Shown piece after piece: positions 7,719 to 59,246 of a stretch of DNA of 64,000 nucleotides. Below the pieces are notes generated by a model. It saw only the letters and a list, made by a program, of their open reading frames with translations. It did no database searches and had not been told where the DNA came from. How positions within the stretch are numbered: position 1 is the first letter of the stretch; every line of letters begins with the position of its first letter. This DNA comes from an uncultured virus (IMG/VR IMGVR_UViG_3300010163_001408). Taxonomy: Duplodnaviria > Heunggongvirae > Uroviricota > Caudoviricetes. The position numbers and the translations under genes were made by a program. The stretch lies in the IMG/VR virus record IMGVR_UViG_3300010163_001408. One strand, 5' to 3'.

Positions 7719-8846
7719 GTGGCAAGTAATAATTTACCTTCAATCACAATTGAGACATTTACAAAAATTGTAAAAATGCAGTTTCAGGAAAGGAACTTCA
7801 GACCTATTTTTGGTTTGGGCAAGGGCGGAATCGGAAAGACAGAATCCATTGCAGATCTGGCAAAGAAGGAACTCAAGATCGGCTATATTGATGTAAGACT
7901 TTTGCTTTACAGCGAGACTGATTTGAAGGGTATTCCTTATCCTAACGCTGAACATACCCATACTATCTGGTTACAGAACAACATACTTCCTAATGAGGAA
8001 AGAGATGGAAAGTCAGGTATCCTTGTATTTGATGAAATTACATCTTGTGCAAGAAGTGTAAGAACAGCAGCATACCAGCTGTTGAATGAAAGACGTCTGG
8101 GTGAATATACATTACCTGATGGATGGATGGTAGTATGCCTTGGTAATGGTGAAGATGACGGTGGAGATTTCCAGGGTATGGAAGGGAACTTTACTAATAG
8201 ATGCTCGGTTTACAATGTTGTTCCTAATGTGGAATCTTGGAAGACTTGGGCATTGAAAAACAATGTAAATGAATTGGTATCTGCATACGTTTCATTTAAG
8301 CCTCAGGATCTTCACAGTTACACACCCGACAGTGAAACAGAAATGCTGTTTGCTTCTCCTAGAAGCTGGACAGCTGTAAGTAATATACTTAATACCTATG
8401 GTTACAGGGACGGGGACGAGATTATGTCAGCTCGTATTATTGGTAACCTTGGACAGCGTGTTGGACAGCAGTTCATTTCATTCTGCAAGTTCAAGTTCAA
8501 TGAAAAGACAATTGATCCTAAGAGGATCCTTGAAAATGGCGAAATGTTTAAGACAGATAGTCAGGAGATTATCTACATTACCATTGAAAGTGTAATCAAG
8601 CTTATGGGTGACCAGATCAAGGCAGATTACCAGAATAGTAAGATTCAGGAGAATACCTATAAGCAGGCAGCTAACGGTATGAGATGGATCCTTGGACTTA
8701 AGAAGGAATATGCTGTAATGGGATATAAGGACTTCATCAGATATGATGAAGACATCATGAGAACCTTTGTAATGACCCCTACTTTTCACAAGTTCTGTCC
8801 TGAACTGTTGAAGTTCGCAAAGGACAATGAGGCTATCTTCTCCTAA
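7719..8846 (+). CDS. MoxR-like AAA+ ATPase, probable partner of the VWA protein at 1937
   Basis: Walker A GKGGIGKT, IDVRL, DLKGIP, Walker B LVFDEI, YQLLNER.LG.Y.LP, FASPRSW; GTG start. Confidence 0.88.
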   Translation: MASNNLPSITIETFTKIVKMQFQERNFRPIFGLGKGGIGKTESIADLAKKELKIGYIDVRLLLYSETDLKGIPYPNAEHTHTIWLQNNILPNEERDGKSGILVFDEITSCARSVRTAAYQLLNERRLGEYTLPDGWMVVCLGNGEDDGGDFQGMEGNFTNRCSVYNVVPNVESWKTWALKNNVNELVSAYVSFKPQDLHSYTPDSETEMLFASPRSWTAVSNILNTYGYRDGDEIMSARIIGNLGQRVGQQFISFCKFKFNEKTIDPKRILENGEMFKTDSQEIIYITIESVIKLMGDQIKADYQNSKIQENTYKQAANGMRWILGLKKEYAVMGYKDFIRYDEDIMRTFVMTPTFHKFCPELLKFAKDNEAIFS

Positions 8847-8906
8847 GGGAGAGGATAGACCTCTGGAACTAAATGAGAGTTTGTATAAGGAGAATCAACA
8901 ATATAA

Positions 8907-10202
<1,296 letters not shown>

Positions 10203-10425: not shown

Positions 10426-11436
10426 ATGAGGCTGAAAACAAAATATAAGACTTATACAAAGAGTAAAACAGAGAAGCAGAAAAAATTAGATAAAGAGAAA
10501 AAAAGTAATTTACCTAAAATAAGCCCAATATACAATAGTACATCTCCATATAACGTAAGAAGAGCAACAATAGACCTAACTAAATTAACATATGGTATCA
10601 TTGATAGTTGTGAATTAACAAGTATAAATATGATGGATGGGCAGATAAGTTTAAGTAATAGCTGGATAGAATTACTGCTTATAATGATAGATGCACTCAT
10701 AGAAAATAAACCAGACAATTTTATAGAATTATTAAGCATGCACAATGTTACAAATCAATGGTTTTGCATAGATAAGTATTATGGTAAATACACCTTTGAA
10801 TATGAAAATCCTAAGGTGTATAATATATATAACAGTGGATATTACTTAGAAGCAATTTTCAATAATTCTAATATATTTCATGCCATTATAGGTCTTACAA
10901 GATGTTTAGGATATCAACTTAATGAAATACAGCTAAACATAAGAAATCCCAAAATAGACAAAAACATAAACGAGATAGAGTTTAATCCTACAATGTTAGA
11001 GACAGAAGAAAGCATAGTAGACATAGATGGTGTATACAGTATGTTAAAGTCTGGCATACATCTGGTTGGAATGCAAATACTTGGATCTAATGCCAAGGTA
11101 CATCGAATAGACGTAGCTTTGATGCTTTTTTGTAATTGGATATATGATAATTATGGTATTTCTAGATTTTCAACAATAAAAAATATAGGGAATACGGGAA
11201 TTAGTTTGGAATGTACTAGTGAGGATGAAGAAAATGAAAACGGAAATAAAAATCAGGTACAGTATGAGCAGATAAGAAATAGTGGAATATATGTTTATAC
11301 AGACTTAAACAATGAAGATATCATTAAATTTATTAAGAATACATTAAAGAGTTTAAATATGGACAAATCACAATTGAAATTCAAATTCAGGGCATTAAAA
11401 GAGAAGAACAAGTTAAAGGAGTGGGAGATAGAATAA
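10426..11436 (+). CDS. Hypothetical protein with two internally duplicated domains and a basic N-terminus
   Basis: IYNSGYYLEAIFNNSNIFHAIIGL aligns with IRNSGIYVYTDLNNEDIIKFIKNT. Confidence 0.8.
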   Translation: MRLKTKYKTYTKSKTEKQKKLDKEKKSNLPKISPIYNSTSPYNVRRATIDLTKLTYGIIDSCELTSINMMDGQISLSNSWIELLLIMIDALIENKPDNFIELLSMHNVTNQWFCIDKYYGKYTFEYENPKVYNIYNSGYYLEAIFNNSNIFHAIIGLTRCLGYQLNEIQLNIRNPKIDKNINEIEFNPTMLETEESIVDIDGVYSMLKSGIHLVGMQILGSNAKVHRIDVALMLFCNWIYDNYGISRFSTIKNIGNTGISLECTSEDEENENGNKNQVQYEQIRNSGIYVYTDLNNEDIIKFIKNTLKSLNMDKSQLKFKFRALKEKNKLKEWEIE

Positions 11437-11437
11437 A

Positions 11438-12007
11438 ATGGCAAGCGGAATAGATAAACTTGGAAGTAAGAGGAATAAACTTACATTAGCCAGAATGACG
11501 CATGGTGATATAATTAAGAAAAATGATGCATTATACATAACAGATTATAAGGATACAAAAGTTCAAAACTTAATAAACATCTATACTGGATCAATTATGC
11601 AAAAGGTATTAGCTTCACCTTGGAATAATAAATGTAAGGATTCAATTTTTAAGTTAGAAGGTGACTTGATACTGGTAATACCTCAGATAGGTTTAGATGA
11701 TTATGCAGCAAGAGTGTATAGTGAAAGAGGAAACTGCATATTTGTGTTAAATAATACACGAGGTGTTGGGGTATGGTCGCGGTTATTAAATGATGAAAAC
11801 GTACTTGTAATTCTAAGAGACCAATATAAAAATAATAGAGCATTTGTATGGAATCCACAATTGCAAAAGATTACAGAGTATTATGATGGAGTTACAGATG
11901 TATACACTGATAGTAAAGAAGGTATCATTAGAATAAATCAGTTAACAGATGATGATCACATAATAAATCATTCATATACCATAGACATTATGGAGATGAC
12001 AATATGA
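11438..12007 (+). CDS. Paralogue-array protein 1
   Basis: LARMTHGDIIKKNDALYITD…LINIYTG…RVYSERG…VWNPQLQKITEYY. Confidence 0.85.
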   Translation: MASGIDKLGSKRNKLTLARMTHGDIIKKNDALYITDYKDTKVQNLINIYTGSIMQKVLASPWNNKCKDSIFKLEGDLILVIPQIGLDDYAARVYSERGNCIFVLNNTRGVGVWSRLLNDENVLVILRDQYKNNRAFVWNPQLQKITEYYDGVTDVYTDSKEGIIRINQLTDDDHIINHSYTIDIMEMTI

Positions 12008-12582
12008 GTTTAGACTTATCTGCAGCAGGAATAGACGTAGGCAATAGACTTGCAATATTAAACATGACTTATAAAAAGATATACAAGCTAACTGATTCAA
12101 TATACATAGCAGTAATAAATGAATATAAAGATGAAGATGATATAATTTTAATAAACATATTAACTTCTGATGTACTTGAGAAAAGAGAACATTGCTTAAA
12201 AAATAGTGCAGAAGAAGCAAATGAACTGAATTACTACTCTGACATAAAGATAATTAATGGATTAGTAGCAACAACTCCAAATTCATTAGCTAATATACCA
12301 TTTAGATTATATAATGACTTTGGAGATTTAATAAAGAGCATAGAGATTAAGAGTGTAGAAGATATTGTATGGCTTAACTTAGTTGATAATAAGTTAATCA
12401 TATTAATAATAGGAATAATAGGATATTATAATTTATGGTGCATAATATATAACAACAATACACATCAAATAGAAGAATATTATGATAAAGTAATGTACTT
12501 CTGGCAGCCACATAGCAGCATAATAAGTATTGTATTGGGAGATAAATATAGAACGCAAAATGATTATGAGGTAGACAATTAA
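12004..12582 (+). CDS. Paralogue-array protein 2
   Basis: LAILNMTYKKIYKLTDSIYI…LINILTS…RLYNDFG…IIYNNNTHQIEEYY; ATGA overlap with the previous gene. Confidence 0.85.
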   Translation: MSLDLSAAGIDVGNRLAILNMTYKKIYKLTDSIYIAVINEYKDEDDIILINILTSDVLEKREHCLKNSAEEANELNYYSDIKIINGLVATTPNSLANIPFRLYNDFGDLIKSIEIKSVEDIVWLNLVDNKLIILIIGIIGYYNLWCIIYNNNTHQIEEYYDKVMYFWQPHSSIISIVLGDKYRTQNDYEVDN

Positions 12583-13157
12583 TGGAAGAAACAAACATTG
12601 AAAATAACGAAGAGGACATGAGTTTAGATGCAAGATTAAATATAATAAATACAATATATGGAAATTCATATCCATTAAATAATGGTGTATGTATCATAGA
12701 TAATTTTCCACAAACATATAACACATATCAGAAAGATTTAAAAATTGTAAATAGCTTCACAGCTCAGATATTGGGAACTATATTAACTTATAAAACTAAA
12801 GTAAATGACCACCATGTAAGATATCATGGCGTGCTTAAACTTGAAAAACTAGTATTAATACAATTAAGTAGATATGATTCAAGGTTATACAATGAGTTAG
12901 GAAATTTGATATATACTATTCCCGAAAGGGTAATCAGTCTTATTTGGCATCACATTAAAGATAACAAGCTAATCATAACATTTTGTCATTCATACACTAT
13001 AATATATAATAAAACAACACATATGGTAGAGGAGCATTTTGATAATTATGCGACAAATTATGATTTTGATAAAGAGGCGGAAAATGATATTATAATATTG
13101 AAATTAATTACAGCTAGTGGTATAATAGTTAATAAGAGGTATGTTAAGGAGGTATAG
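12582..13157 (+). CDS. Paralogue-array protein 3
   Basis: LNIINTIYG…IVNSFTA…RLYNELG…IIYNKTTHMVEEHF; TAATG overlap. Confidence 0.85.
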   Translation: MEETNIENNEEDMSLDARLNIINTIYGNSYPLNNGVCIIDNFPQTYNTYQKDLKIVNSFTAQILGTILTYKTKVNDHHVRYHGVLKLEKLVLIQLSRYDSRLYNELGNLIYTIPERVISLIWHHIKDNKLIITFCHSYTIIYNKTTHMVEEHFDNYATNYDFDKEAENDIIILKLITASGIIVNKRYVKEV

Positions 13158-13160
13158 GAC

Positions 13161-13775
13161 ATGAGTAAAAAAGAGGACAGCATTTTAAAAGAGAAGGTAT
13201 CATTAGCATTATTAACATATGGCTGCATAAGAAAAATATCCAATACCCTATATATGAGTGATGACAAATATGGTCCATTTAATACACCAGTTGAGCAGAT
13301 ATTATTTAATATATACACAGGCATTGTATACGAGAGGGTTCCAGTATTTAAGTGGGAAATTAACTCAGGATTATCATATAGTGAAAAAACAGTTTATAAG
13401 TACTCATGTAATATATCTAGGTCTAAAAATAATTTTGTGTATAATGACCCAGTAGTTAATCACATAACAAATAGAACTGATGTATTTACACTATACAGTC
13501 CAGCTGGATTCCCTATATTCAAGTTAAATGGCCTAAAAAGAATAGCTCATGTGAAACATACCGAATATAAAATAGGAGACAAGTATGCTTTTATTAGGTT
13601 GCATTACGGTGGAAGTCAGAATTACGGAATATTATATAACCTATACACCAATAAAATAGAGGAATATTATCCAAATATAGTTAACATGCTAATTAATGAG
13701 GAAAGAGGCACCCTAAAGGTAATTAGAATGTTAGAGGATGGCAAACTTGAAACAAAGGTTTATGGTGCATTCTAA
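13161..13775 (+). CDS. Paralogue-array protein 4
   Basis: LALLTYGCIRKISNTLYMSD…LFNIYTG…TLYSPAG…ILYNLYTNKIEEYY; AGGAGG RBS. Confidence 0.85.
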   Translation: MSKKEDSILKEKVSLALLTYGCIRKISNTLYMSDDKYGPFNTPVEQILFNIYTGIVYERVPVFKWEINSGLSYSEKTVYKYSCNISRSKNNFVYNDPVVNHITNRTDVFTLYSPAGFPIFKLNGLKRIAHVKHTEYKIGDKYAFIRLHYGGSQNYGILYNLYTNKIEEYYPNIVNMLINEERGTLKVIRMLEDGKLETKVYGAF

Positions 13776-13888
13776 GACTAGTCAATAGATATAGTAGTAA
13801 AGCATAATAACTGTGTATAAAGTGTATTAAATAAAAATTGAACAGTTACCTATAGAGACATACAATTATTGAAAAAGGATTATAGAAA

Positions 13889-14458
13889 ATGGATAAAATA
13901 AGTAATAAAGAACGCTTAGCATTACTTGAAATGATATATGGAAAGCTGGTAAAAATCAATAGATACATATACAGAACAGACGTACCAGAAATGCCTAAGC
14001 AAAAAGTATTTAACATAAGAACTGGTGAAGTAATAGAGGAAAGAGCAGTAATCTTTATTACTGCTCATCATGGCACTGAAATAACTGGATATCAAGATAA
14101 TTTTGATGAATACGAGTCACATTTGGTATATTCATTTCCAGATTATAGTGCAAACAAGAAAAATAAAACACTTAGAGTGTATAATGAGGATGCAGACTTA
14201 GTATTAAAGATAGATTACTCACTTGATGAAAATTTGACGGTTTCAGACTTTGTTTTAGCAGATGATAAAGTGTTATTGGTAGTTACAATATATAGTAGTA
14301 CATGTAGATTTCCAGTATATATTTATGATAGAAAGACTAAAACCATGAAAAAAGAATATATGGCGGCATCAACTGCTATAAAGAAAAACAAAAGGGTATA
14401 TGTACCTTTAGATCAATCTTATAGACATTGCAAGTCATATGAATTGGAGAGAATATGA
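13889..14458 (+). CDS. Paralogue-array protein 5
   Basis: LALLEMIYGKLVKINRYIYRTD…VFNIRTGEVIEER…RVYNEDA…YIYDRKT. Confidence 0.85.
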   Translation: MDKISNKERLALLEMIYGKLVKINRYIYRTDVPEMPKQKVFNIRTGEVIEERAVIFITAHHGTEITGYQDNFDEYESHLVYSFPDYSANKKNKTLRVYNEDADLVLKIDYSLDENLTVSDFVLADDKVLLVVTIYSSTCRFPVYIYDRKTKTMKKEYMAASTAIKKNKRVYVPLDQSYRHCKSYELERI

Positions 14459-15093
14459 TGAATGCATTAAAACAAGAAAAAGAAGTCAATTTATTAATGC
14501 TGAAAACATTATATGGTAAACTCAGAAAATTAAATGATGTAATTTATATTACAGATACTGAAGGTACAAATATACAAAAAATAATAAATATTGCTACTGG
14601 AGAGGTTTTAATGCATAGAATGGTAACTAGAGTACCATTATTTTTCAATTCAAGTATGTTTGCATACAGTGATTTTATACAAATTGGCTTGAGAAAATAT
14701 GGGCTTATCTATATTCATGCAGATACAAATGGTGTTATAGATGGCTGCTTCAGAGTATACAATATACATGGAGAATGTTTGATAGAACAACACATATATG
14801 AAGGTTATACAGTTGTATATGAATATAAATTAGATAATAATAAACTGTTAGTATTAGTAACAGTAAGAAAATATAATAAAAATGAAAATGAGGAAACATA
14901 CTTCATTGTTTATGATAAGTCAACAGAAAACATAGAGGATAAACAATATTATACAAAAATAAGTAAAATAAAACATAGAAATAGAGAGAGTATACGTATA
15001 AAATTAACTTCATCTAAACATAAGACATTTAAATTAGCAAAAAAAGATAATGAAAATTTAGATGAAGCATTATATTTATATAATCATATATGA
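14455..15093 (+). CDS. Paralogue-array protein 6
   Basis: LLMLKTLYGKLRKLNDVIYITD…IINIATGEVL…RVYNIHG…IVYDKSTENIE. Confidence 0.85.
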   Translation: MMNALKQEKEVNLLMLKTLYGKLRKLNDVIYITDTEGTNIQKIINIATGEVLMHRMVTRVPLFFNSSMFAYSDFIQIGLRKYGLIYIHADTNGVIDGCFRVYNIHGECLIEQHIYEGYTVVYEYKLDNNKLLVLVTVRKYNKNENEETYFIVYDKSTENIEDKQYYTKISKIKHRNRESIRIKLTSSKHKTFKLAKKDNENLDEALYLYNHI

Positions 15094-15695
15094 AAGGTAG
15101 ACATAAAATGGGCATGGACGATAAGTTTGATTATAATAAGGCATTACTTGAAATGACATATGGTAAAGTAAGAAAACTAAATAATGCTTTGTATATAACA
15201 GATAAATCTTGCGACATAAATATGCATGACTTTGATGTGGTCACAAGCGAAGAAAGTATAATTAATGTACAAACAGGAAAAATACAAGAAACAAGGATTG
15301 TGCACAAAATACATCGAAGTGAGCAACAAGCATTAGATTATAAAGATGGCATAGTAATTTCAAATCAGTTTGGCATAGTTTATGCAAAAGAGAACAATAT
15401 AAATGATTTTAGAACATTTAGAATATATAACAATGACGGAAAAATAATATACGGGGAATATAAAGATGAAGCCCTAGATATAACTATACATGAACAAAAA
15501 ATATCTAATACTAGCATGCTTATATTATTAGATAATAAGAAAAGTAGAATGCTAACAGGTATATTATATAATGATACATCAAATAAGCCAAAGGTTTATA
15601 AAAACATAATAGAAACACGTATACACTATGGTTCACCTGTTAAAGTAACATTAATACTTAATAAATGTGATCATACAGAGGTTGTAAAAATATGA
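15090..15695 (+). CDS. Paralogue-array protein 7
   Basis: ALLEMTYGKVRKLNNALYITD…IINVQTG…RIYNNDG…ILYNDTS; true start may be the ATG at 15108. Confidence 0.85.
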   Translation: MKGRHKMGMDDKFDYNKALLEMTYGKVRKLNNALYITDKSCDINMHDFDVVTSEESIINVQTGKIQETRIVHKIHRSEQQALDYKDGIVISNQFGIVYAKENNINDFRTFRIYNNDGKIIYGEYKDEALDITIHEQKISNTSMLILLDNKKSRMLTGILYNDTSNKPKVYKNIIETRIHYGSPVKVTLILNKCDHTEVVKI

Positions 15696-16150
15696 ATGAG
15701 GATTATGAAAATAATCTGGCAATATTAAAAATGACATACAACAAACTTAGAAAGCTAAACGAGTATTTATATATAACGGACACGATTAAAAATAGTAATA
15801 GATTTTATATTAAAACAACTACAAAGAAAATAATAAATATAATCATTGGAAAAGTACTTGAGGAAAGAGTTGTAACTAAACAAAACATTACAGATGTACC
15901 TAGTTACAATGATGGAATTGAGGTATCATATTTTACTAAATTTGTATTTGCAAAACATGGAAAAGTGGTGAAATTATAGTTAAGGATATATAGTAATAAC
16001 ATTAAGTAAATATACCTGTACTGTAATAATATACAATATGCAGTTAGGAAAAGTTGAAGGTATATATGATAATATATCTTCTATGAAACAATATGGTAAC
16101 AAGGTAGACATAGACATAACCAAGAAAATTTCAGAGGAGCTTGAAATAAT
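15692..16150 (+). pseudogene. Paralogue-array member 8, disrupted (premature TAG at 15977, then deletion/frameshift)
   Basis: LAILKMTYNKLRKLNEYLYITD N-terminus; LRIYSNN follows the TAG in frame; IIYNMQLGKVEGIYDNI appears in the +1 frame from 16008. Confidence 0.8.
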
Positions 16151-16723
16151 ATGGGCAAAGACTATACAGAAAGAATTGCATTATTAAAAATGACATATGG
16201 TGATGTACAAAAAATCAATAGTTGCTTGTACATAACAAAAAGAGAATCAATAGATGGTACTTTCCTCCTATTAAATGCAAACACTGGTGAAGTATTGGAA
16301 AAAAGGTATAATTTAGCATCAGCATATGACGGACATACTTTGACAGGTGTAATACCATTAAATTCAGAATTAACCATTACATTACCTCAGTACCTCTCTC
16401 CTGGAGATTTCAGTTTAAGATTCTATGATAGACAAGCAAACATGGTATTTGAAATTGAAAATTGTACACTAGACTTTTCAAATTCCAAAGCATATCAATT
16501 AAAAAATAAACATAAGCAATTAATTTTATTAGGGTCTGCAAAAGAAGTATATTGGGCAGCAATATATGATAGTAAACTTAATAAGATTACAAAAGTCATA
16601 AGAGGAATAGTAAATTGTATTGTAAGAACTAGAGATATCTATTCAAACAATGAAATATGCATTATATATATGAACGAAAGAGGTATAGCACATACTCTAA
16701 GATATACGTATGTAATTTTTTAA
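16151..16723 (+). CDS. Paralogue-array protein 9
   Basis: IALLKMTYGDVQKINSCLYIT…LLNANTGEVLEKR…RFYDRQA…AIYDSKL; GAGGAG RBS. Confidence 0.85.
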   Translation: MGKDYTERIALLKMTYGDVQKINSCLYITKRESIDGTFLLLNANTGEVLEKRYNLASAYDGHTLTGVIPLNSELTITLPQYLSPGDFSLRFYDRQANMVFEIENCTLDFSNSKAYQLKNKHKQLILLGSAKEVYWAAIYDSKLNKITKVIRGIVNCIVRTRDIYSNNEICIIYMNERGIAHTLRYTYVIF

Positions 16724-16750: not shown

Positions 16751-18343
16751 ATGTATTACATTGATTTAAAGAAAGATAAACCTGATATTGGTCGTATGGA
16801 AGCAACTATGGATAGACTTATGACAAAGGGAATAAGACTAGCTGACTGTAACGAATTAAAGACTTACTATGCAGAATTAAGGGAAACACTTAAAAATGAT
16901 ATAAGTGAGAAGTATTACATTAAGAATCCTAATAGTCCTGCTCAAATAGTGGACTTCTTAAAAGTGACAGCATCTACAATAGATTTGAATAGTAAGAATG
17001 ATATTATAAATATCTGCTATAATAGTGAAGATGACAAATGGACAACTAATGCAGAAGCATTAGGAAAATTGGCAGACTTGGGATATGAATTTGCAAGAGA
17101 TATACTGGATTACAGGCATGTTAAAAAATATGCAGAAAGCATTGAAAGTATTACAGAGGCGGCTGATGAAAATGGGTTAATACATCCTACTGTTAGTTTA
17201 GGTAAGACTCATAGAGTGAATTATAGCAATCCTGGTTTATTAACAATTCCTAAGAAGTTATTATGGTATATCATAGCACCTTATACCAAAGGAAATGTAT
17301 TGTATAGCATAGATATTAAGAATCAGGAACCTAATATACTAATTAACATTACAGGTGCAAATGAACTTAAACCAGCATTAGAAAGTAAGGATGGGTTATA
17401 TGAAACACTATTCAAACAGTGCTTTGTTCCTAAAGTGACAATGAATGTTCTTATAGATACATTACCAGAGAACAGAGTTTATGAAATAAATGAGTTAAAG
17501 CAAATTGGAACAATATCACCTGCAAGTTACTCGGCAGCTAAACCAGCTGTTAATAATATTTACTACAATGATGAAAGGGTAGTTGGCATTGAAACAGTTT
17601 GTGCAGGTAGTGAAAAAGGATTAATTCCACAGTTACCTGAAACAATAAGCATTGAAACAGAGAAGGGAAATATTTATTCTGTTAAAGTAACATGGGATAT
17701 GGAAACAGTAAACAAGAAATATAAAAGAGGAAACGATTATTCTGTAACAGGTACACTTGATGAACTTGAAGTAAGAGTGTCAAAAGCAGAAAGAAAAGAA
17801 TTTAAGACAGCTTGGTTGGCAATATCTTATGGAGCAAGCATATTTGGAATCAAGTTATCATGTAAGATTATAGATGGTGCAACAGTATATAACTTCGCAA
17901 CAAAGGTAAATGGATTAAAAGAATACAGAAGTAAAATAGATGCACTTGCAAAAGAAGGTAACAGCATCATAGGAACTGCATTTGGAACACCTCTCAACGC
18001 TGGATATTATGATGACTGGAAAAAATTAAAGAGGGTGTTACTTGATCTTCCAATTCAAGGCACTGGAGCGGATATATTATCACTCTTAATTAATAGATTT
18101 TATGATTATACGACAGAGCATAGTTTAGATGATAAAATGTACTTGTATTATACAAGACATGACGAGTTAATCATAGAAGTTGACCAGAAATATTTAAGTG
18201 AAATTGGAAATGAAAAGATGGAGAGTATACTAAGAGATATGCTTGAACATCAGATAAATGACTGGTCACCATTCCATGTAGAGATACAGCAAGTAGGAAA
18301 TAAAAAGGTTGATATAAGTGAAATAGAGGATGATGAAGATTAA
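16751..18343 (+). CDS. Divergent family A DNA polymerase, polymerase domain only, with an inserted Ig-like segment
   Basis: NPNSPAQI (thumb), ILDYR, THRVNYSNPGL, motif A SIDIKNQE, motif B RKEFK….ISYG, PIQGTGADI, motif C RHDELIIE. Confidence 0.85.
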   Translation: MYYIDLKKDKPDIGRMEATMDRLMTKGIRLADCNELKTYYAELRETLKNDISEKYYIKNPNSPAQIVDFLKVTASTIDLNSKNDIINICYNSEDDKWTTNAEALGKLADLGYEFARDILDYRHVKKYAESIESITEAADENGLIHPTVSLGKTHRVNYSNPGLLTIPKKLLWYIIAPYTKGNVLYSIDIKNQEPNILINITGANELKPALESKDGLYETLFKQCFVPKVTMNVLIDTLPENRVYEINELKQIGTISPASYSAAKPAVNNIYYNDERVVGIETVCAGSEKGLIPQLPETISIETEKGNIYSVKVTWDMETVNKKYKRGNDYSVTGTLDELEVRVSKAERKEFKTAWLAISYGASIFGIKLSCKIIDGATVYNFATKVNGLKEYRSKIDALAKEGNSIIGTAFGTPLNAGYYDDWKKLKRVLLDLPIQGTGADILSLLINRFYDYTTEHSLDDKMYLYYTRHDELIIEVDQKYLSEIGNEKMESILRDMLEHQINDWSPFHVEIQQVGNKKVDISEIEDDED

Positions 18344-18377: not shown

Positions 18378-18791
18378 ATGGCAGTAGAAGGTCAGCTTAA
18401 AAGAAGAGAACTGGACATATTAAACATTCTGTTCAACGCAGAACAAGATTTAACCTCTTACGAGATTTCATGTGGGATGGAGGGGCTTACACAAAGTACT
18501 GTAACACAGGTAACAAATAACTTTCTAAGAGAAGGGATAATAGAAGTAGCAGACATAAAACATTCAGGTAAAGTTTTTAGTAGAACATTTAAACCTACTG
18601 AAAAAGCTAAAGAGGTATTATTAAATCATATGATAAGCAATTACAAATACACAAATAACATCATATCCAAAAGTGAAGCATGTAAAGCAATATTAGAAGT
18701 TGAACAATCACCAGCTGAACTAAAGCAACAGATTAAAGAATTAAAAGCAATTATAAAGAAACTGGAGTATAAAGAAAAGAATGAATTATAA
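18378..18791 (+). CDS. Winged-helix transcriptional regulator (BlaI/MarR-like)
   Basis: RELDILNILF….LTSYEI….LTQSTVTQV…L.EG.IE pattern; C-terminal coiled coil. Confidence 0.75.
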   Translation: MAVEGQLKRRELDILNILFNAEQDLTSYEISCGMEGLTQSTVTQVTNNFLREGIIEVADIKHSGKVFSRTFKPTEKAKEVLLNHMISNYKYTNNIISKSEACKAILEVEQSPAELKQQIKELKAIIKKLEYKEKNEL

Positions 18792-19041
18792 TGCTATGCA
18801 CCTAACAGAAAAAGAAATTAAAGAATTAATGATACAAGAAAAATCAAGAATGGTGCACTGTCCATTTTGTGGAAACAACAAGGTAAAAGTAACAAAAATA
18901 AACTTAGGATACGATATAAAATTCCAAGGCATATGCAATAAGTGTTTTAGTAGAGGACCAGCAGTAAAAAACGATGTACACAAAGCAGTAAACAAGTGGA
19001 ACGAAAGAGTTTATCTTCATAACGTAAATAAATTGGAATAA
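18781..19041 (+). CDS. Lar (restriction alleviation)-like zinc-finger protein
   Basis: CPFCG…CNKC..RGP……AVNKWNER. Confidence 0.75.
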   Translation: MNYNAMHLTEKEIKELMIQEKSRMVHCPFCGNNKVKVTKINLGYDIKFQGICNKCFSRGPAVKNDVHKAVNKWNERVYLHNVNKLE

Positions 19042-19108: not shown

Positions 19109-20608
19109 ATGAGAGAGGCATGTAACAAACTTACAATAACAATAGTAGTAATAACTTGTTTAACTATTTGCCTATGTTTATTTGGTTGTGCAAGTATAAC
19201 AAAAGATATGCAATCAGCCATAAATGAGAATAAGGAAATAGTACTGTCAGTTGGTGTAGAGCCATCATCTTTAGAGAAAAGAGAGTTAACATGGGTAGAG
19301 TTGGATCAGTTGCAAACGTTTAAAAGTCTAAGACGTGGCTGGGATGATGAATTAAATATTCTTAAGTTTGATAACAATTCTAAGAATGGAGTATTATTCG
19401 TAGAGTTAGATGGCAGCTGGGCAGGAAATAATACTTTATACAATGCATTTCAAAATAAGGTATTTGTAAATGACTTCTATGGTGTAGGGTCAGTAAGAAG
19501 CAAGTTGGCAAAATTAGCAATAGAGGAGTTTAGTGACATTTCAAGTGAAAATGCAGGTATACTAGCATCAATAAATGCATACTTTAATATTTTTGCTACT
19601 AACACTGATGGAACATCTGGTTTAAACAATTTCATAAGCAGAGCAGAAGCAATGTCAGCAATATATAGAGCAGATACACCTGTAACACTTAATGAAGTAC
19701 CAGAGAGTTTTTCTAATGTAGTTGGAGAAAATATTTATAATGAATATGCTTTTAACTTAGAGCCATATAGTTATTTACAAACATCCAATGGAAGCTTAAA
19801 TAGTACATTATATAATAGCACAATAACAAGAGCAGAGTTTATTTACATGTTAGTACAAAGATATTTCCCTGATGATTATAATTCAACAAATGAAGAAATA
19901 GCTTTTACAGATTGTAAAAATGGTGGAAAAGTAAAAGAAATATCTGAAGGGCATGCACATCAAGCTTATGAACTTGAGTATAATTTACAAAATCCAGAAA
20001 AAGGAGTAAATGAAGATTTATATAAAGCTTTGGTAGTAGCTTATAAACATGGAATTGTTTCAAGCGAAACAAACTGGAATGAGGGATTACGTGGTGGCGA
20101 TATAATAACAATGCTAGTAAGTACATACCAAGCTATCAATAAAAGAGATGACTTCGCAGTAAATGCCAAGACAGGTGAAAATGCAGGACAGAGTTTATAT
20201 GTAGTAGCAAAACCTGAGGATAACAGTCAGGAACAACAAGTAACAGAACAGACAATTTCATTAGGACAGTCACATAAATTAAGTGACTTAGCAGATATAG
20301 ATGATTTGATTAAAGCATATGGTGATGAAATTGTAATGACAGATGAAGAAATAGAGGAAGCAAAATTAATTGGAGAATCATTCACTATTGAAGAATATGA
20401 TGCATACTTGGTAGTGGACCATTGCAGAGCATTAAATGTAAGGACAGGTCCAAGCACTGATTACAGAATAATAAAGTGTGTACCTAAAGGAACAGTAGCT
20501 CACATAGTTGGTGTTTGTGCAGAAAATGGATGGTATAGAGTTATAGCAGATGGAAAGATATGTTATCAATGTGGAGTTTATTTTTCAGAACAGGAAGAGC
20601 AAAAATAG
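19109..20608 (+). CDS. Lipoprotein with SLH-like motifs and a C-terminal bacterial SH3 domain
   Basis: Lipobox LFGC; ISRAEAM and ITRAEFI motifs; LNVRTGPSTDY.II..V.KG…NGWYRV. Confidence 0.8.
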   Translation: MREACNKLTITIVVITCLTICLCLFGCASITKDMQSAINENKEIVLSVGVEPSSLEKRELTWVELDQLQTFKSLRRGWDDELNILKFDNNSKNGVLFVELDGSWAGNNTLYNAFQNKVFVNDFYGVGSVRSKLAKLAIEEFSDISSENAGILASINAYFNIFATNTDGTSGLNNFISRAEAMSAIYRADTPVTLNEVPESFSNVVGENIYNEYAFNLEPYSYLQTSNGSLNSTLYNSTITRAEFIYMLVQRYFPDDYNSTNEEIAFTDCKNGGKVKEISEGHAHQAYELEYNLQNPEKGVNEDLYKALVVAYKHGIVSSETNWNEGLRGGDIITMLVSTYQAINKRDDFAVNAKTGENAGQSLYVVAKPEDNSQEQQVTEQTISLGQSHKLSDLADIDDLIKAYGDEIVMTDEEIEEAKLIGESFTIEEYDAYLVVDHCRALNVRTGPSTDYRIIKCVPKGTVAHIVGVCAENGWYRVIADGKICYQCGVYFSEQEEQK

Positions 20609-52893: not shown

Positions 52894-55521
52894 ATGAGAA
52901 TATTATTATCAGGCGGATACAAAACAGAGAATATATTAAAGGGCATAGCTAAAAAATTCGAGTCAAGTGGGGATGAATTTTTAATAATTCCTTTCATTGA
53001 TGACATAAATAGTATATACAGTAAGGGAGATTACTTTGACAAGGCACTTATTACTGAACAGAGTATTACGAGAGAGAATGCAATTACAGATGAAAATGAT
53101 ATAAGATTAAGAATAAGTGAGTTTGCTATAAGCTGTGCACAAAGAAAAGTTAAACAGTCTTATGTGTTCTTAACAAAAGACAAACAATTAGCAAACATGA
53201 TATATGAGGAAATATTACCTATTGAGAAAAGTAGTGCAGTATTACTTAAAGAGCCAGGGTATTCTGTAAGTTTCTTCCATAACATCATACTAACAGATGT
53301 GAAGCAAATAAAATCAGAATGGGTATTTGTACCTGAAGATATAAGAAGCGAGGCTGCTCTGCCAAATGACATAGAGATAGAAGACCCTAGCATCATCAGT
53401 GATACAGATTTAGAGAATGATAGTTTTAGTAACATTAAGGATACTAGCAATACAACACTAAATATAGAGTTTAACCAAGAATTAACTGGTTCAAACACCA
53501 TGGTATCTGATGAAGTAAAAATTGAAACAGGTGAATCATTTGGGTTCAATAATAATTTCGGAGATGATATCTTTGGAGATGACACCAATAACAGTGGATC
53601 AGGTCTTGAAGATACCAACAGCAATTTAGGAGATAACATTTTTGGAGATGACACCAATAGCAATTTCGGAGATGATACCAATAATTTTGGTGGTGATATC
53701 TTTGGAGATGCTAGCAACAACAATTTCGGAGATGATATCTTTGGAGATGACACCAATAACAGTGGATTCAACAATAATAGATTCGGAGAAGTATTAGAAG
53801 ACAACACTGGATTTAGTAATAACACTGAAGTTTTTGGTGATAACATAGGATTAGAAAGTAGCTTAGATGAAAATAACACTTTCAACTTCGGTGATAATAA
53901 CTTTAACTCTGAAAGTACAGATTCATTTATTCCAGATACAGCAGTTGATGAAACATTGGACATGGACAATACAACTCCAATAACTCAGTCTGGGGAGTTA
54001 CCAAATTATTTAGTGGATGTAACACCAGATGAACCATCTGTAACAATGTCATTAAGCAGTTTACAAAAAACACCAGAAGATGAGCAACAAATGAATAATG
54101 ATACATTACCAGGTTTTGATGAACCTGAAGAAACTAAATCAGAAATAGATAATTTTTATGATACTTATGTAACTTCAACAAATCAATCTCAATTTGACAA
54201 TAGTATGTATAATGATACATATCAAAATGACCAGATAAACAATGTGACAGGCATAAATGGATTTAATACTACAGACTATATGCCTCAAATACCTGAAGAA
54301 AATCAGATTCCAAATAATAATCCCATGGGGTTTGAGGCTGATGATTATGACATAAACAATTCTAATATGCAACAAGACATGAATGATCAAATAGGTGAGT
54401 CTATGAATCCTGCTATGACAGCTGCAGGTGCTATTGGCGCAATGACAACACTATCTGATGACTTATATAATCAAAGTCAAAACATGAATAATCAAATGCA
54501 GGGACAAGAGCAACTAATGGATCAACAGATGCAGGGTATGAATCAGCAAGACATGTATCAGATACCACCTCAAGTTGCTCCAACTCAGCCTCGAGGAAAG
54601 AAAAGATTCCTTGGAAGAAACCAAAGTACACCACAGCAACAGCCTCAACAATCAATGCCTGCATCTAAAGTAAATGCAAATGATATTAGAGAGAGAATAA
54701 AGCCATTTGCAGCTAGGGGTAACTCAATTGTAGTTACAGGATGTGGCGGTTGTGGAACAAGTACTGTAGCATATAATTTAGCTAATATCATAGCACAGTT
54801 AGGTTATACAGTGTTATTAGTTGACATGGATACAGAGGGTAGAACCCAGAGTTATATTTCCAAAGGTAACTATATCAGTATGGATCCTGAAAGTTCTAAC
54901 TTAATGTCAGCAATTAACAGTAGTACTGGTATAGGAAACTATACAACAGTAGTTAAGTCAGGTTTCCATTTATTAACCATGGGATTAGCTACTGATTCAA
55001 CACCTGTAAATGAGTTGATACACAAGGAAAAGATATCAAGATTCATTAATTTGGCTAAGACAAGTTACAACTTTGTAGTTTACGACATTCCATTTACATC
55101 AGCCATTAGTTACTTAGCTGAAATGACATACATGAGTGATAACCTAGTAGTTGTAACTGATGCAAGTAACTGGGGTGTAACAAAAACAATGTTAAATATG
55201 TGTAACATATCATCTGATGAGATGCAAGATACAATGTTCAGCAGAGCACAGTTAGTATTTAACAAATACAGAAGATTATATAAACTCTTCGGTAGAAAAG
55301 TTAAAACATGTGTGGATATTACAAAAGCAATGGATCAGAAAGTGTATGAACTTATTGGTGAGGATATAGGGTTAAGATTTGAAGATATGCATATAGCAGG
55401 AATAATAAATGATGATCCTGAGTTTGAGGATGGATGGTACGAAGAAGTTCAATACTCAGACACAGCAAAAGGGCAGCAGATATTCTTAAAATTAGTAGCT
55501 GACATAGTATTAAAAGCATAA
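52894..55521 (+). CDS. ParA/MinD/TadZ-like protein with a degenerate P-loop and a long acidic FG-rich linker
   Basis: VVTGCGGCGTSTVAYNLA, VLLVDMD, YNFVVYD.P, D.LVVV. Confidence 0.8.
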   Translation: MRILLSGGYKTENILKGIAKKFESSGDEFLIIPFIDDINSIYSKGDYFDKALITEQSITRENAITDENDIRLRISEFAISCAQRKVKQSYVFLTKDKQLANMIYEEILPIEKSSAVLLKEPGYSVSFFHNIILTDVKQIKSEWVFVPEDIRSEAALPNDIEIEDPSIISDTDLENDSFSNIKDTSNTTLNIEFNQELTGSNTMVSDEVKIETGESFGFNNNFGDDIFGDDTNNSGSGLEDTNSNLGDNIFGDDTNSNFGDDTNNFGGDIFGDASNNNFGDDIFGDDTNNSGFNNNRFGEVLEDNTGFSNNTEVFGDNIGLESSLDENNTFNFGDNNFNSESTDSFIPDTAVDETLDMDNTTPITQSGELPNYLVDVTPDEPSVTMSLSSLQKTPEDEQQMNNDTLPGFDEPEETKSEIDNFYDTYVTSTNQSQFDNSMYNDTYQNDQINNVTGINGFNTTDYMPQIPEENQIPNNNPMGFEADDYDINNSNMQQDMNDQIGESMNPAMTAAGAIGAMTTLSDDLYNQSQNMNNQMQGQEQLMDQQMQGMNQQDMYQIPPQVAPTQPRGKKRFLGRNQSTPQQQPQQSMPASKVNANDIRERIKPFAARGNSIVVTGCGGCGTSTVAYNLANIIAQLGYTVLLVDMDTEGRTQSYISKGNYISMDPESSNLMSAINSSTGIGNYTTVVKSGFHLLTMGLATDSTPVNELIHKEKISRFINLAKTSYNFVVYDIPFTSAISYLAEMTYMSDNLVVVTDASNWGVTKTMLNMCNISSDEMQDTMFSRAQLVFNKYRRLYKLFGRKVKTCVDITKAMDQKVYELIGEDIGLRFEDMHIAGIINDDPEFEDGWYEEVQYSDTAKGQQIFLKLVADIVLKA
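53554..53767 (+). repeat. In-frame repeats encoding NFGDDIFGDDTNN, including an exact 46-nt duplication at 53554 and 53722
   Basis: AATTTCGGAGATGATATCTTTGGAGATGACACCAATAACAGTGGAT occurs twice. Confidence 0.88.
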
Positions 55522-55557
55522 CACATAAAAGATTTTAAAATCAAAGGAGTAAAAATA

Positions 55558-56964
55558 ATGACAAAGTACCTTTTTAACAGTAATATTCATGGATATGAAT
55601 TAGCTACAATAAAAGAGTTTAACAAAGACTTAGTAAAAGATGACTTAATCATATTAATTATAGATAAGTCATCTGAAGCAGATTCTAGTTTATACTATAA
55701 ATTAGTTGATGGGGCAATAAGAAGTCAAAGTCGTGTCATACTAATAAGTGTGGATGACAATAACAGTTTATTTGATGTATTAGCATCAAATATGATAGTA
55801 TATAAAGAATATGATATTTACCAAGTAGTAAACAAAGAAGCAATATCAGCAGATTACTTACTCAAAGTGCAAGATAGAACACCTGATCTAACTGAAGCAC
55901 AGGCGTTTTTAAATACTGATATAGTAGCATATAATGATATATGCAACATACTATATGGTATAGAATCATTAGTTAATGAGGGAAACATAGACGGATTAAA
56001 GGCGCATGTTGAAAGACACATACCTACAATAGAAGGTCTAGTATATACAATTAATAAGATGAAAAAAGCATATGATGCATCTGCAAGTAATGAGTTTTTA
56101 GACATGGTAAATTCATTAAAAATGCAAATAGAAAGTTTAAATGGCACTATAGCAGATAAGAATAAAGATATTGATGATATTAAACACAATAGAGATGAAT
56201 ATAAGGTACAAACAGAAAATTTAAAAAGAGAAATAACTAAGCTAAAGAACAATCCAGTTGATGTGTCTGCAAGTAGTGAAACTACTAAAAATGTTATAAA
56301 ATCATATACTGCATTTAATACATCACTGCATGCAAATAACAAAGCAATAGTAATCTACTTTAAGGAAGTTTCATATGTAAGATTTACAAATACACTTGTG
56401 TCAATACTTATGAAAGTTCTTGAAAAAAAGAAACTTAAATGTAAATTACTCATTTATGATAACAACACCAACATGGTTGCAAATTATGGTTTGGATGTCA
56501 TAAATGGTGATTATTATGCATCTAATAAAATGGAAGTACTTAAGAAAAAGATAAAAATGGTGGTAACAGAGCCTTTTCAGTCAATTATACAAGATATGAT
56601 AGCATCAAATGAAGCAGCTGACGTAGTAATTATTTACGACAGACTTAAACAGTATGAAGACATAGTAAAAGGAAATAATGTTACAAAGTTCTTTATAGTA
56701 AACTCTAGAACAGATGTTAAAAACATAATAGGTGTTAAGGCATTAGGTGTTGATGACACAGAATCAATAATTACTAATGCAACAAACACCTTCAAGTTTG
56801 ACAATAACAAAGAAGTTAAATTCTTAGACATACCAGTTATAGATACTAACTTCTCAAGTTTGACAGAATCAGCTCAAATCAACAAATACATTAGATTAAG
56901 AACTACTATAACAGATGTATTGTTACTAGAAACAATAATGAATAAGGCACATATAAGTAAATGA
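55558..56964 (+). CDS. Hypothetical protein with central coiled coil
   Basis: AAGGAG RBS; heptad-rich segment flanked by alpha/beta domains. Confidence 0.8.
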   Translation: MTKYLFNSNIHGYELATIKEFNKDLVKDDLIILIIDKSSEADSSLYYKLVDGAIRSQSRVILISVDDNNSLFDVLASNMIVYKEYDIYQVVNKEAISADYLLKVQDRTPDLTEAQAFLNTDIVAYNDICNILYGIESLVNEGNIDGLKAHVERHIPTIEGLVYTINKMKKAYDASASNEFLDMVNSLKMQIESLNGTIADKNKDIDDIKHNRDEYKVQTENLKREITKLKNNPVDVSASSETTKNVIKSYTAFNTSLHANNKAIVIYFKEVSYVRFTNTLVSILMKVLEKKKLKCKLLIYDNNTNMVANYGLDVINGDYYASNKMEVLKKKIKMVVTEPFQSIIQDMIASNEAADVVIIYDRLKQYEDIVKGNNVTKFFIVNSRTDVKNIIGVKALGVDDTESIITNATNTFKFDNNKEVKFLDIPVIDTNFSSLTESAQINKYIRLRTTITDVLLLETIMNKAHISK

Positions 56965-56975
56965 GGTAATATAAG

Positions 56976-59057: not shown

Positions 59058-59069
59058 GAGGTAAACACT

Positions 59070-59231
59070 ATGTACTTTATGTTATTTATAGTGATATTAG
59101 CAGTAGTTTATATTAAATCATTTAAAGATAGCTTTAATCAAGAACAATTACAAAAAGTAGGAAATATTTTAACTATAGTGACAGTAGCATTAATAGTTAT
59201 ATTCATACTAGCAAGTATTTTACTTCATTAA
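59070..59231 (+). CDS. 53-aa two-TM membrane protein, absent from the ORF track
   Basis: GAGGT RBS; MYFMLFIVILAVVYIKSFKDSFNQEQLQKVGNILTIVTVALIVIFILASILLH fills the gap between the two ATPase genes. Confidence 0.75.
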   Translation: MYFMLFIVILAVVYIKSFKDSFNQEQLQKVGNILTIVTVALIVIFILASILLH

Positions 59232-59246
59232 GGTGGTAAATTTATT

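Follow-up and report, generated by a model that had tools for sequence, protein, structure and literature searches.

A tandem array of nine diverged paralogues, modelled as small propeller-like proteins, at a variable slot beside the polymerase gene of a huge phage-like element

The junction between the genes for a SeqA-like protein and a family A DNA polymerase (PolA) in a huge phage-like element carries nine consecutive paralogous genes, which represent a lineage-specific tandem expansion with eight live copies and one pseudogene. Their products belong to a previously unnamed, nearly orphan family of small, fast-evolving proteins. Large phages are rich in expanded gene families whose role is unknown, and the one described here is an unusually clean case, in that a near-orphan family with a confidently predicted fold sits in a slot that can be compared at zero, one or nine copies, and at least three of the copies have been retained across lineages. 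The element was viewed through 64 of the 172 kb of its contig, and this 64-kb stretch is referred to below as the window. We infer, tentatively, that the array supplies a repertoire of binding or inhibitory proteins that act in the cytoplasm against variable host targets.

The genes are listed in Table 1. As the preliminary description had it, there are nine consecutive ORFs on the plus strand, eight of which encode 189–212 aa and the eighth 95 aa, and several of them are coupled by overlaps: the junctions include four ATGA overlaps and one TAATG overlap. The remaining junctions, those with the neighbouring genes included, have gaps of 1, 3, 113, 171 and 27 nt, and Shine-Dalgarno-like sites precede most of the copies. 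Promoter-like matches within the 113-nt gap reach 9 of 12 positions at best, and region-wide they number 85 against 70 ± 9 in shuffled sequences, which is no clear excess. Long repeats at the DNA level had been reported as absent, and the only repeated stretches found were of 21–74 nt at 60–83% identity, lying over the codons of the conserved motifs.

Table 1. Features of the array (positions 11438–16723) and its two flanking genes, in window coordinates.
Feature	Position	Strand	Description
SeqA-like neighbour	10426..11436	+	336 aa, conserved, upstream; basic N-terminal tail
Paralogue 1	11438..12007	+	189 aa; family profile E 1.4e-61
Paralogue 2	12004..12582	+	192 aa, pI 4.6; orthologue P0014, 41% identity
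Paralogue 3	12582..13157	+	191 aa; N-terminus most divergent; orthologue P0016, 45-46% identity
Paralogue 4	13161..13775	+	204 aa; orthologue P0010, 37% identity
Intra-array gap	13776..13888	.	113 nt, AT-rich; separates two translationally coupled blocks
Paralogue 5	13889..14458	+	189 aa; family profile match
Paralogue 6	14455..15093	+	212 aa; copy used for AlphaFold2 model
Paralogue 7	15090..15695	+	201 aa; family profile match
Paralogue 8, N-terminal part	15692..15979	+	95 aa; profile positions 1-91, E 1e-29; TAG stop
Paralogue 8, C-terminal remnant	15984..16150 (frame open to 16184)	+	profile positions 130-174
Paralogue 9	16151..16723	+	190 aa; family profile match
PolA, family A DNA polymerase	16751..18343	+	530 aa, conserved, downstream; Ig-like Big_4 insertion

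The nine proteins are homologous, although only 18–33% identical to one another. Pairwise BLASTP comparisons between them give E values of 1e-7 to 1e-14, and the four shared motifs noted earlier reappear in the consensus of the paralogue alignment. A profile HMM built from the nine recovers all of them from the 450 six-frame ORFs of the window (E 1e-61 to 9e-30), and no further member was found there below E 0.05, even with the filters off. A public database search returned only 12 other members among 1.84 billion representative proteins, all on short contigs. The contigs with P0010, P0011, P0012, P0017 and P0021 (4,321 bp) and with P0014 and P0016 (2,138 bp) are candidate arrays of the same kind. 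Three orthologue pairs with these outside proteins are well supported, at 37–46% identity, and the corresponding copies (paralogues 2, 3 and 4) are therefore old and have been retained.

The family had not been recognized from the sequence, and this holds after searching, since no family of Pfam, PHROG, NCBIfam or PADLOC corresponds to it. NCBIfam models gave only sub-threshold chance matches, the single PHROGs match (E 0.004) joins the truncated paralogue 8 to a family of unknown function, and none of the nine proteins was matched by a PADLOC model or by a known anti-defence family. Among 50,697 GenBank phage records there was no DNA or protein match to the region, to PolA or to the upstream neighbour. 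A plasmid search produced one partial polymerase match at 28% identity, and IMG/VR, searched with the single relatives P0016 and P0011, produced nothing. The family profile has one chance-level match among solved structures (a collagen adhesin, E 0.0036). In the ESM Atlas, unnamed Bacillota clusters reach feature scores of at most 0.90 and a YqgU-like propeller scores 0.86; these serve as leads only. Literature searching brought up no account of the family.

None of the proteins has a hydrophobic segment at the N-terminus, in keeping with the reported lack of signal peptides. Paralogue 2 has one internal hydrophobic window of 19 residues (mean hydropathy 2.15), located in a region modelled as β-strand. 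There is thus no convincing membrane segment in the array, and the products are predicted to be small cytoplasmic proteins.

Paralogue 8 had been described as disrupted, and it is indeed split over two frames. The frame of the C-terminal remnant is recognized by the family profile (E 3.7e-4) and by a profile of 20 sequences (E 1e-5). It corresponds to the C-terminal part of the protein but is read in another frame; about 38 profile positions are accordingly missing from the gene, and the frame shifts between its two parts. Judged by its reading frames, paralogue 8 is a pseudogene that arose by internal deletion with a frame change.

The AlphaFold2 model of paralogue 6 (pLDDT 85.2, pTM 0.82) has a helix at residues 2–20, 17 strands and a C-terminal helix of low confidence. 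On this model, each copy would consist of an N-terminal helix and, after it, about four β-meanders of four strands that resemble propeller blades. Propellers usually serve as binding scaffolds. The suggestion that the proteins are built of such blades stands in part: all leading structural matches are propellers or pieces of propellers, but the three proposed blade motifs do not form a significant internal repeat, the best hhalign comparison between segments of the alignment reaching a probability of 5.3% (P 0.007).

The likeness to known β-propeller proteins (WD40, FG-GAP, Kelch, and the two-blade lectins RSL and BambL) lies in the four-stranded antiparallel β-meanders. Residues 72–180 of the model can be superposed on two to three propeller blades, with an rmsd of 2.6–3.1 over 77–83 residues for RSL and BambL. 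Positions of about 50–155 of the family profile weakly match repeat proteins with several blades (WD40, FG-GAP_2), and the repeats of FG-GAP_2 and of unnamed repeat proteins align with the blade-type motif F-R-I-Y-N-x-x-G ... L-x-N-N-K-L-L-I-L. In contrast to these proteins, the array products are only about 190 aa long, with room for about four blades, they add a conserved N-terminal helix, and the global TM scores are only 0.18–0.29. None of the nine window proteins or the 12 relatives reaches the cut-off of any Pfam model, propeller repeat models included; the best propeller-type match, to Beta-prop_NWD2_C, scores 13 bits where 33 are required. In BFVD the best matches (E 1.7e-4 to 1e-3) are to mimivirus R882 and to BTB/POZ-WD40 proteins. 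The paralogous BTB/WD40 propeller families of giant viruses likewise comprise many diverged copies of a β-rich binding fold within a single large genome. The resemblance to them is structural only (TM 0.2–0.29), and the array proteins have no BTB or other adaptor domain.

The N-terminal 45 or so residues are the best conserved part of the family. A second small gene family, found in four relatives beside the same conserved neighbour, resembles the array proteins in the N-terminal motif only, a weak and non-significant similarity (hhalign E 0.007 over 28 columns). These two observations would suit virion-mounted or packaged modules, in which the helix docks interchangeable β-rich binding modules on a component of the particle. 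We consider this unlikely. An HMM of the N-terminal motif detects the nine family genes, and none of the remaining window ORFs (450 in all, the family included) scores below E 0.1 (the next best is at E 0.16), so no unrelated fold in the window bears the motif, and homology spans the whole proteins. Further, the helix is modelled confidently (pLDDT 84–96) as part of a compact structure, and the genes lie within the replication operon, not amid recognizable structural genes. As far as the sequences tell, the conserved N-terminus belongs to proteins that are homologous throughout and is not a tag alone.

A related suggestion is that the helix is a putative constant plug by which interchangeable four-blade mini-propellers dock on one common partner, which could be the SeqA-like neighbour, the replisome of PolA, or else a protease or chaperone of the host. 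Each mini-propeller would then bring in its own host protein, to be sequestered or destroyed, and a bacterial virus would possess a set of adaptors comparable to the BTB-Kelch and F-box-WD40 substrate receptors of eukaryotic viruses. We regard this as very doubtful.

The upstream neighbour has a C-terminal domain similar to the DNA-binding domain of SeqA, and its stop codon lies 1 nt before paralogue 1. PolA matches DNA_pol_A (E 6.2e-25) and Big_4 (27.8 bits, cut-off 22.1), and is 54–71% identical to its counterparts in related elements. Eight distinct related elements carry both flanking genes and were compared at the slot between them. It is empty in four of the eight, with a gap of 5–42 nt (L001, L003, L008 and L010), and holds unrelated cargo in two, namely cREC_REC in L005 and Nuc_deoxyri_tr2 in L006/L007. 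The other two have a single distant family member, found in L011 with E 6.4e-10 and in L004 with E 9e-5 by hmmsearch and E 6.5e-5 by hhalign (probability 64%). L011 lies on a contig binned to Lachnospiraceae, the sole hint at a host. No family member occurs anywhere in the 268-kb record of L001. The junction is a variable cargo slot, at which related elements have zero, one or nine copies, and because it is empty, single-copy or foreign-filled in the relatives, the array is a lineage-specific expansion of an accessory gene. In a tree that includes the single-copy members, these fall on very long branches without support; the array may postdate the split from the single-copy lineages, or may have shrunk in them.

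The family always lies exactly between the SeqA-like gene and PolA, even as the single copies of L004 and L011, and it appears to be translationally coupled to both flanking genes. The proteins could then be replication accessory factors that bind the SeqA-like neighbour, PolA (for example its Ig-like insertion) or DNA. The empty and foreign-filled slots imply that the polymerase module works without the family, and nine divergent copies are hard to square with one conserved partner, which makes such a role quite unlikely. That relatives manage without the family, and that one copy is a pseudogene, would also fit redundant or decaying duplicates without distinct roles. This we find hardly credible, given that eight full-length frames have been kept open at so low an identity, and that three copies have orthologues elsewhere that are still intact.

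In our preferred, tentative reading of a repertoire against host targets, the copies would share a transcript with the replication genes and be coupled to them in translation, so the proteins would be made inside the infected cell. Each copy would be fitted to its own variant of a host target, most likely a host defence or takeover factor, and the set of targets covered would grow as copies duplicate and diverge. The spread of pI across family members, from 4.6 to 9.4, fits different partners. The pseudogene may be a sign of birth and death of copies within the array. On the other side, a role linked to replication would account for the position in the replication operon just as well. It had also been proposed that a constant docking helix is combined with variable binding surfaces. 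A sharp contrast between constant scaffold and variable surface is not seen: the paralogues share 23% identity in their strands and 19% in their loops, and loops barely more variable than strands count against the host-target reading too.

In its organization the array resembles the homogeneous polyimmunity loci described by Zhang et al. (2012; PMC3482391), which are tandem, same-strand sets of distant paralogues with tiny gaps, likely polycistronic, and varying in copy number between relatives. The array is likewise tandem and on one strand, with small gaps and no interspersed toxin. On this model each product would neutralize a different protein toxin, whether from host abortive infection, from contact-dependent systems or of the element's own. 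It appears distinctly improbable here. No Pfam immunity family was matched, and the array corresponds to none of the named families SUKH and Imm6/11/28/33/36/41. The fold is propeller-like, and β-propellers were, according to that text, absent from the immunity proteins known in 2012. No toxin domain was recognized with Pfam or PHROGs among the 47 other ORFs of the window, and the array itself is part of the replication operon of a huge phage-like element.

If the proteins do bind host defence or takeover factors, the counter-defence proteins of phages would gain a new scaffold, and the copies would be natural variants for mapping specificity. If they do not, the array is still a well-defined example of how cargo slots in core replication regions grow multigene families.

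Whether the DNA belongs to a phage or a plasmid is unsettled. The window encodes ParA-, HerA/TraG- and FtsK-like ATPases, and two hallmark phage models had no match in the 268-kb record of L001. A neighbouring synthetase was considered as a candidate PurZ and rejected, since it scores 522 bits with the PurA model (cut-off 402) and 120.7 with PurZ (cut-off 300). At the next junction downstream of the array lies a candidate Lar-like restriction-alleviation gene, which falls just short of its cut-off (28.1 bits, cut-off 28.6), so neighbouring slots may hold counter-defence cargo.

Nine ORFs follow one another between the SeqA-like gene and PolA, in a window of GC about 0.30 whose long ORFs all lie on the + strand. 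Eight of them encode 189–212 residues. Identity to the first copy across the aligned nine is 18–26%, and the consensus contains the motifs LALLxMTYGKxxKLNxxLYITD, INIxTGxVLExR, RxYNxxGxxI and IxYNxxTxxIxxYY. A profile built from the nine picks out every one of them from the window's 450 six-frame ORFs (E 1e-61 to 9e-30), and with HMMER filters off the best unrelated ORF reaches only E 0.056. Four of the junctions overlap by ATGA and one by TAATG, while the others have gaps of 1, 3, 113, 171 and 27 nt; GGAG-like sites precede most starts. DNA-level repeats are restricted to 21–74 nt at 60–83% identity, over motif codons. No family member has an N-terminal hydrophobic segment, and pI ranges from 4.6 to 9.4. 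The preliminary description had reported the nine consecutive genes with one disrupted, the overlaps, the four motifs, and the absence of long DNA repeats and signal peptides, and its observation is correct in every particular. The array is a real and sharply delimited feature. The disrupted copy, gene 8, matches separate parts of the profile in two frames (see the table), which identifies it as a pseudogene in which an internal stretch has been deleted and the reading frame has changed.

None of the nine proteins reached a curated Pfam cut-off or matched PADLOC, NCBIfam gave only chance-level matches, and the lone PHROGs match (E 0.004) was between the truncated copy and a family of unknown function. 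When the profile was run exhaustively against 1.84 billion representative proteins, 38 matched at E ≤ 1e-3, namely the window's own nine, 12 relatives of 191–217 residues (E 2e-26 to 5e-6), none of which contains a Pfam family, and 17 long repeat proteins. The preliminary description did not place the proteins in a known family, and the family is new. Ten of the 12 relatives were checked for origin, and each is a singleton on a short contig of a run-level assembly. Five are recorded with a contig of 4,321 bp and two with one of 2,138 bp; we infer from these equal sizes that they share contigs, and hence form arrays.

The eight intact copies were placed together with the 12 relatives in a maximum-likelihood tree. 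It gives strong support (bootstrap/SH-aLRT) to three pairs, namely paralogue 2 with cluster P0014 (99/97; 41% identity), paralogue 3 with P0016 (100/100; 45–46%) and paralogue 4 with P0010 (100/98; 37%), and beyond these there is no resolution. The pairs place at least three duplications before the split from another element, and the copies have stayed intact since then. Decaying duplicates are a rival reading of the array, against which stand the intact frames and the retained orthologues. Diverged copies have been kept long-term, and one copy is dead.

AlphaFold2 was used to model paralogue 6 from a 20-sequence alignment. The fold is predicted with confidence (mean pLDDT 85.2, pTM 0.82), and consists of a helix (residues 2–20), 17 β-strands and a C-terminal helix, of low confidence, that is particular to this paralogue. 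Foldseek matches in the PDB were exclusively propellers (Tako8, Lp49, Fbw7, CJ1041C, RACK1 and BtuG), at E 6e-4 and weaker and TM 0.18–0.27, while the best among predicted viral structures were mimivirus R882 and BTB/POZ-WD40 proteins. Among the 17 long matches are four WD40/nSTAND proteins and an FG-GAP_2 protein, and their repeats align to profile positions ~77–155 (FrIYnxxGnlI ... LxdnklLil) at 10–17 bits per repeat. The likeness to propeller blades proposed from the motifs is thus supported by every PDB match, but segment-against-segment comparison with hhalign gave no significant internal repeat within the family. Our reading of the model is a body of about four propeller-type β-meanders, for which ring closure, a need for a partner or some other packing are all possible.

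The SeqA-like protein has homologues in 31 clusters (40–100% identity, one being the window's own protein), and the contigs of some reach 451 kb. Loci were taken from IMG/VR (L001, the same as L002), metagenomes (L003–L010) and a species-genome collection (L011), and the gene order ATPase, SeqA-like gene, PolA, SH3-domain protein is kept in the relatives. L009 ends inside the SeqA-like gene and was left out of the scoring, and L006 and L007 seem to be the same element; the comparison covers eight distinct elements with both flanking genes. Across these the slot holds a gap, unrelated cargo or one family gene, and it is concluded that it is a variable cargo site.

Features of the window and slot contents of related loci
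Locus	Feature	Coordinates	Strand	Details
Window	PurA gene	8907-10202
Window	SeqA-like gene	10426-11436
Window	Array	11438-16723
Window	Gene 8, N-terminal part	15692-15979	+	95 aa; profile positions 1-91
Window	Gene 8, second-frame remnant	15984-16184	+	profile positions 130-174; E 3.7e-4 (1e-5 with larger profile)
Window	PolA	16751-18343
Window	Lar-like candidate	18781-19041		86 aa
Window	SH3_3-domain protein	19109-20608
Window	ATPase row	52894-61697
L001, L003	Slot			gap 35 nt
L008	Slot			gap 5 nt
L010	Slot			gap 42 nt
L005	Slot, cREC_REC domain gene	10974-11279		slot 387 nt; E 1.2e-22
L006/L007	Slot, Nuc_deoxyri_tr2 (nucleoside 2-deoxyribosyltransferase-like) gene	L006 2958-3479 = L007 2020-2541		slot 817 nt; E 5.8e-12; plus Cys-rich ORF
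L004	Slot, single gene			slot 509 nt; 162 aa
L011	Slot, single gene			slot about 530 nt; 175 aa
L001	SH3_3 copies	13570-15042, 15298-16485
L004	Second small family	9502-10011
L001	Second small family	8474-9004
L009	Second small family	1879-2409
L003	Second small family	1-447

The slot gene of L011 is matched by the family profile (E 6.4e-10), and its TTG start overlaps the stop of the SeqA-like gene. That of L004 is a probable member on sequence comparison (E 9e-5; hhalign E 6.5e-5, probability 64%, 142 columns). The full 268-kb record behind L001 contains no member at E ≤ 0.01. Copy number among related elements is thus nine, one or zero, and the nine copies in the window's lineage against a single gene in some others could reflect expansion or reduction. 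When the two single-copy genes were added to the tree they formed very long, unplaced branches, so the tree does not fix the direction. The flanking genes are much more strongly conserved, with identities across relatives of 54–71% for PolA and 45–68% for the ATPase, compared to about 20–35% for the single-copy family genes. The family is dispensable, and its copy number changes between relatives. The array has the same orientation as the replication genes and is translationally coupled to them; this position favours an accessory role at the replisome, against which the slot is empty in four of the eight relatives.

Proteins of the propeller class typically act as binding scaffolds, and the family proteins are small and of cytoplasmic type. 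We tentatively suggest, as the likeliest reading though at somewhat less than even odds, that the array is a putative repertoire of binders or inhibitors directed against variable host targets, which would serve counter-defence or takeover. The Lar-like candidate at a nearby junction gives this weak help. Counting against it are the lack of similarity between the array family and known anti-defence proteins, and paralogue identity, which is 23% for strands and 19% for loops, so that no surface is obviously singled out. An immunity-type array is a rival reading, since the tandem organisation fits what PMC3482391 calls a "homogeneous polyimmunity locus", but no immunity family or toxin was detected in the window, and that article, from 2012, knew of no propellers among immunity proteins. 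Tandem multigene families of large viral genomes are a kind already known, and the array belongs to it with a polyimmunity-like layout; the family itself is new.

The window also encodes a dCMP deaminase, an HNH-type protein, an ATPase, PurA, PolA, clamp-loader subunits, a GNAT acetyltransferase, a PGA_cap protein, and ParA-, HerA/TraG- and FtsK-like ATPases. The 268-kb relative is classed as viral in IMG/VR (CheckV completeness 89%), and two models for hallmark phage proteins, TerL_ATPase and Phage_capsid, found no match in it. We read the element as huge and phage-like, with phage and plasmid both possible. The ATPase row, which has a bearing on this question, comprises ParA-like (AAA_31/CbiA), HerA/TraG P-loop and FtsK/SpoIIIE ATPases. 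It follows unannotated ORFs of very large size (824 and 1640 aa) and may be a module of conjugation-like or of partition/packaging type. The sole host lead is weak: L011, a 2.8-kb contig, was binned into a Lachnospiraceae genome. PolA belongs to family A and carries an Ig-like Big_4 insertion at residues 291–337 (27.8 bits, cut-off 22.1); tblastn against 50,697 GenBank phage records gave no match at E ≤ 1e-5.

At the junction of the ATPase with the SeqA-like gene, the window has a full-length adenylosuccinate synthase. A PurZ-type label from PHROGs was rejected (120.7 bits against a PurZ cut-off of 300, and 522 against 402 for PurA, in NCBIfam), and by these scores the product is assigned as a true PurA. 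Its GC of 0.372, where other window genes have 0.327, and its absence from the corresponding position in all relatives examined make it look like a recently acquired metabolic gene. In its place four relatives have a second small family of 169–177 residues, with three further clusters (P0070–P0072), whose N-terminus (LYxVLKMMYxxVRVISRQxGxY) resembles the array helix motif. In a rival reading the array proteins are modules docked on the virion, the helix serving as their address tag, but this resemblance is not significant (profile-profile, 28 columns only, E 0.007, probability 5%), and an HMM of the N-terminal motif alone matches nothing in the window beyond the nine family genes. At another variable junction, that of PolA with the SH3-domain protein, the window has a Cys-rich protein which is a candidate Lar-like restriction-alleviation protein from its similarity to Lar_restr_allev (E 2.4e-6; 28.1 bits, just missing the cut-off of 28.6), and L001 has a TnpB-like gene (OrfB_IS605 and Cas12f1-like TNB). 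The single SH3_3-domain gene of the window corresponds to two in tandem in L001, at 51% and 29% identity.
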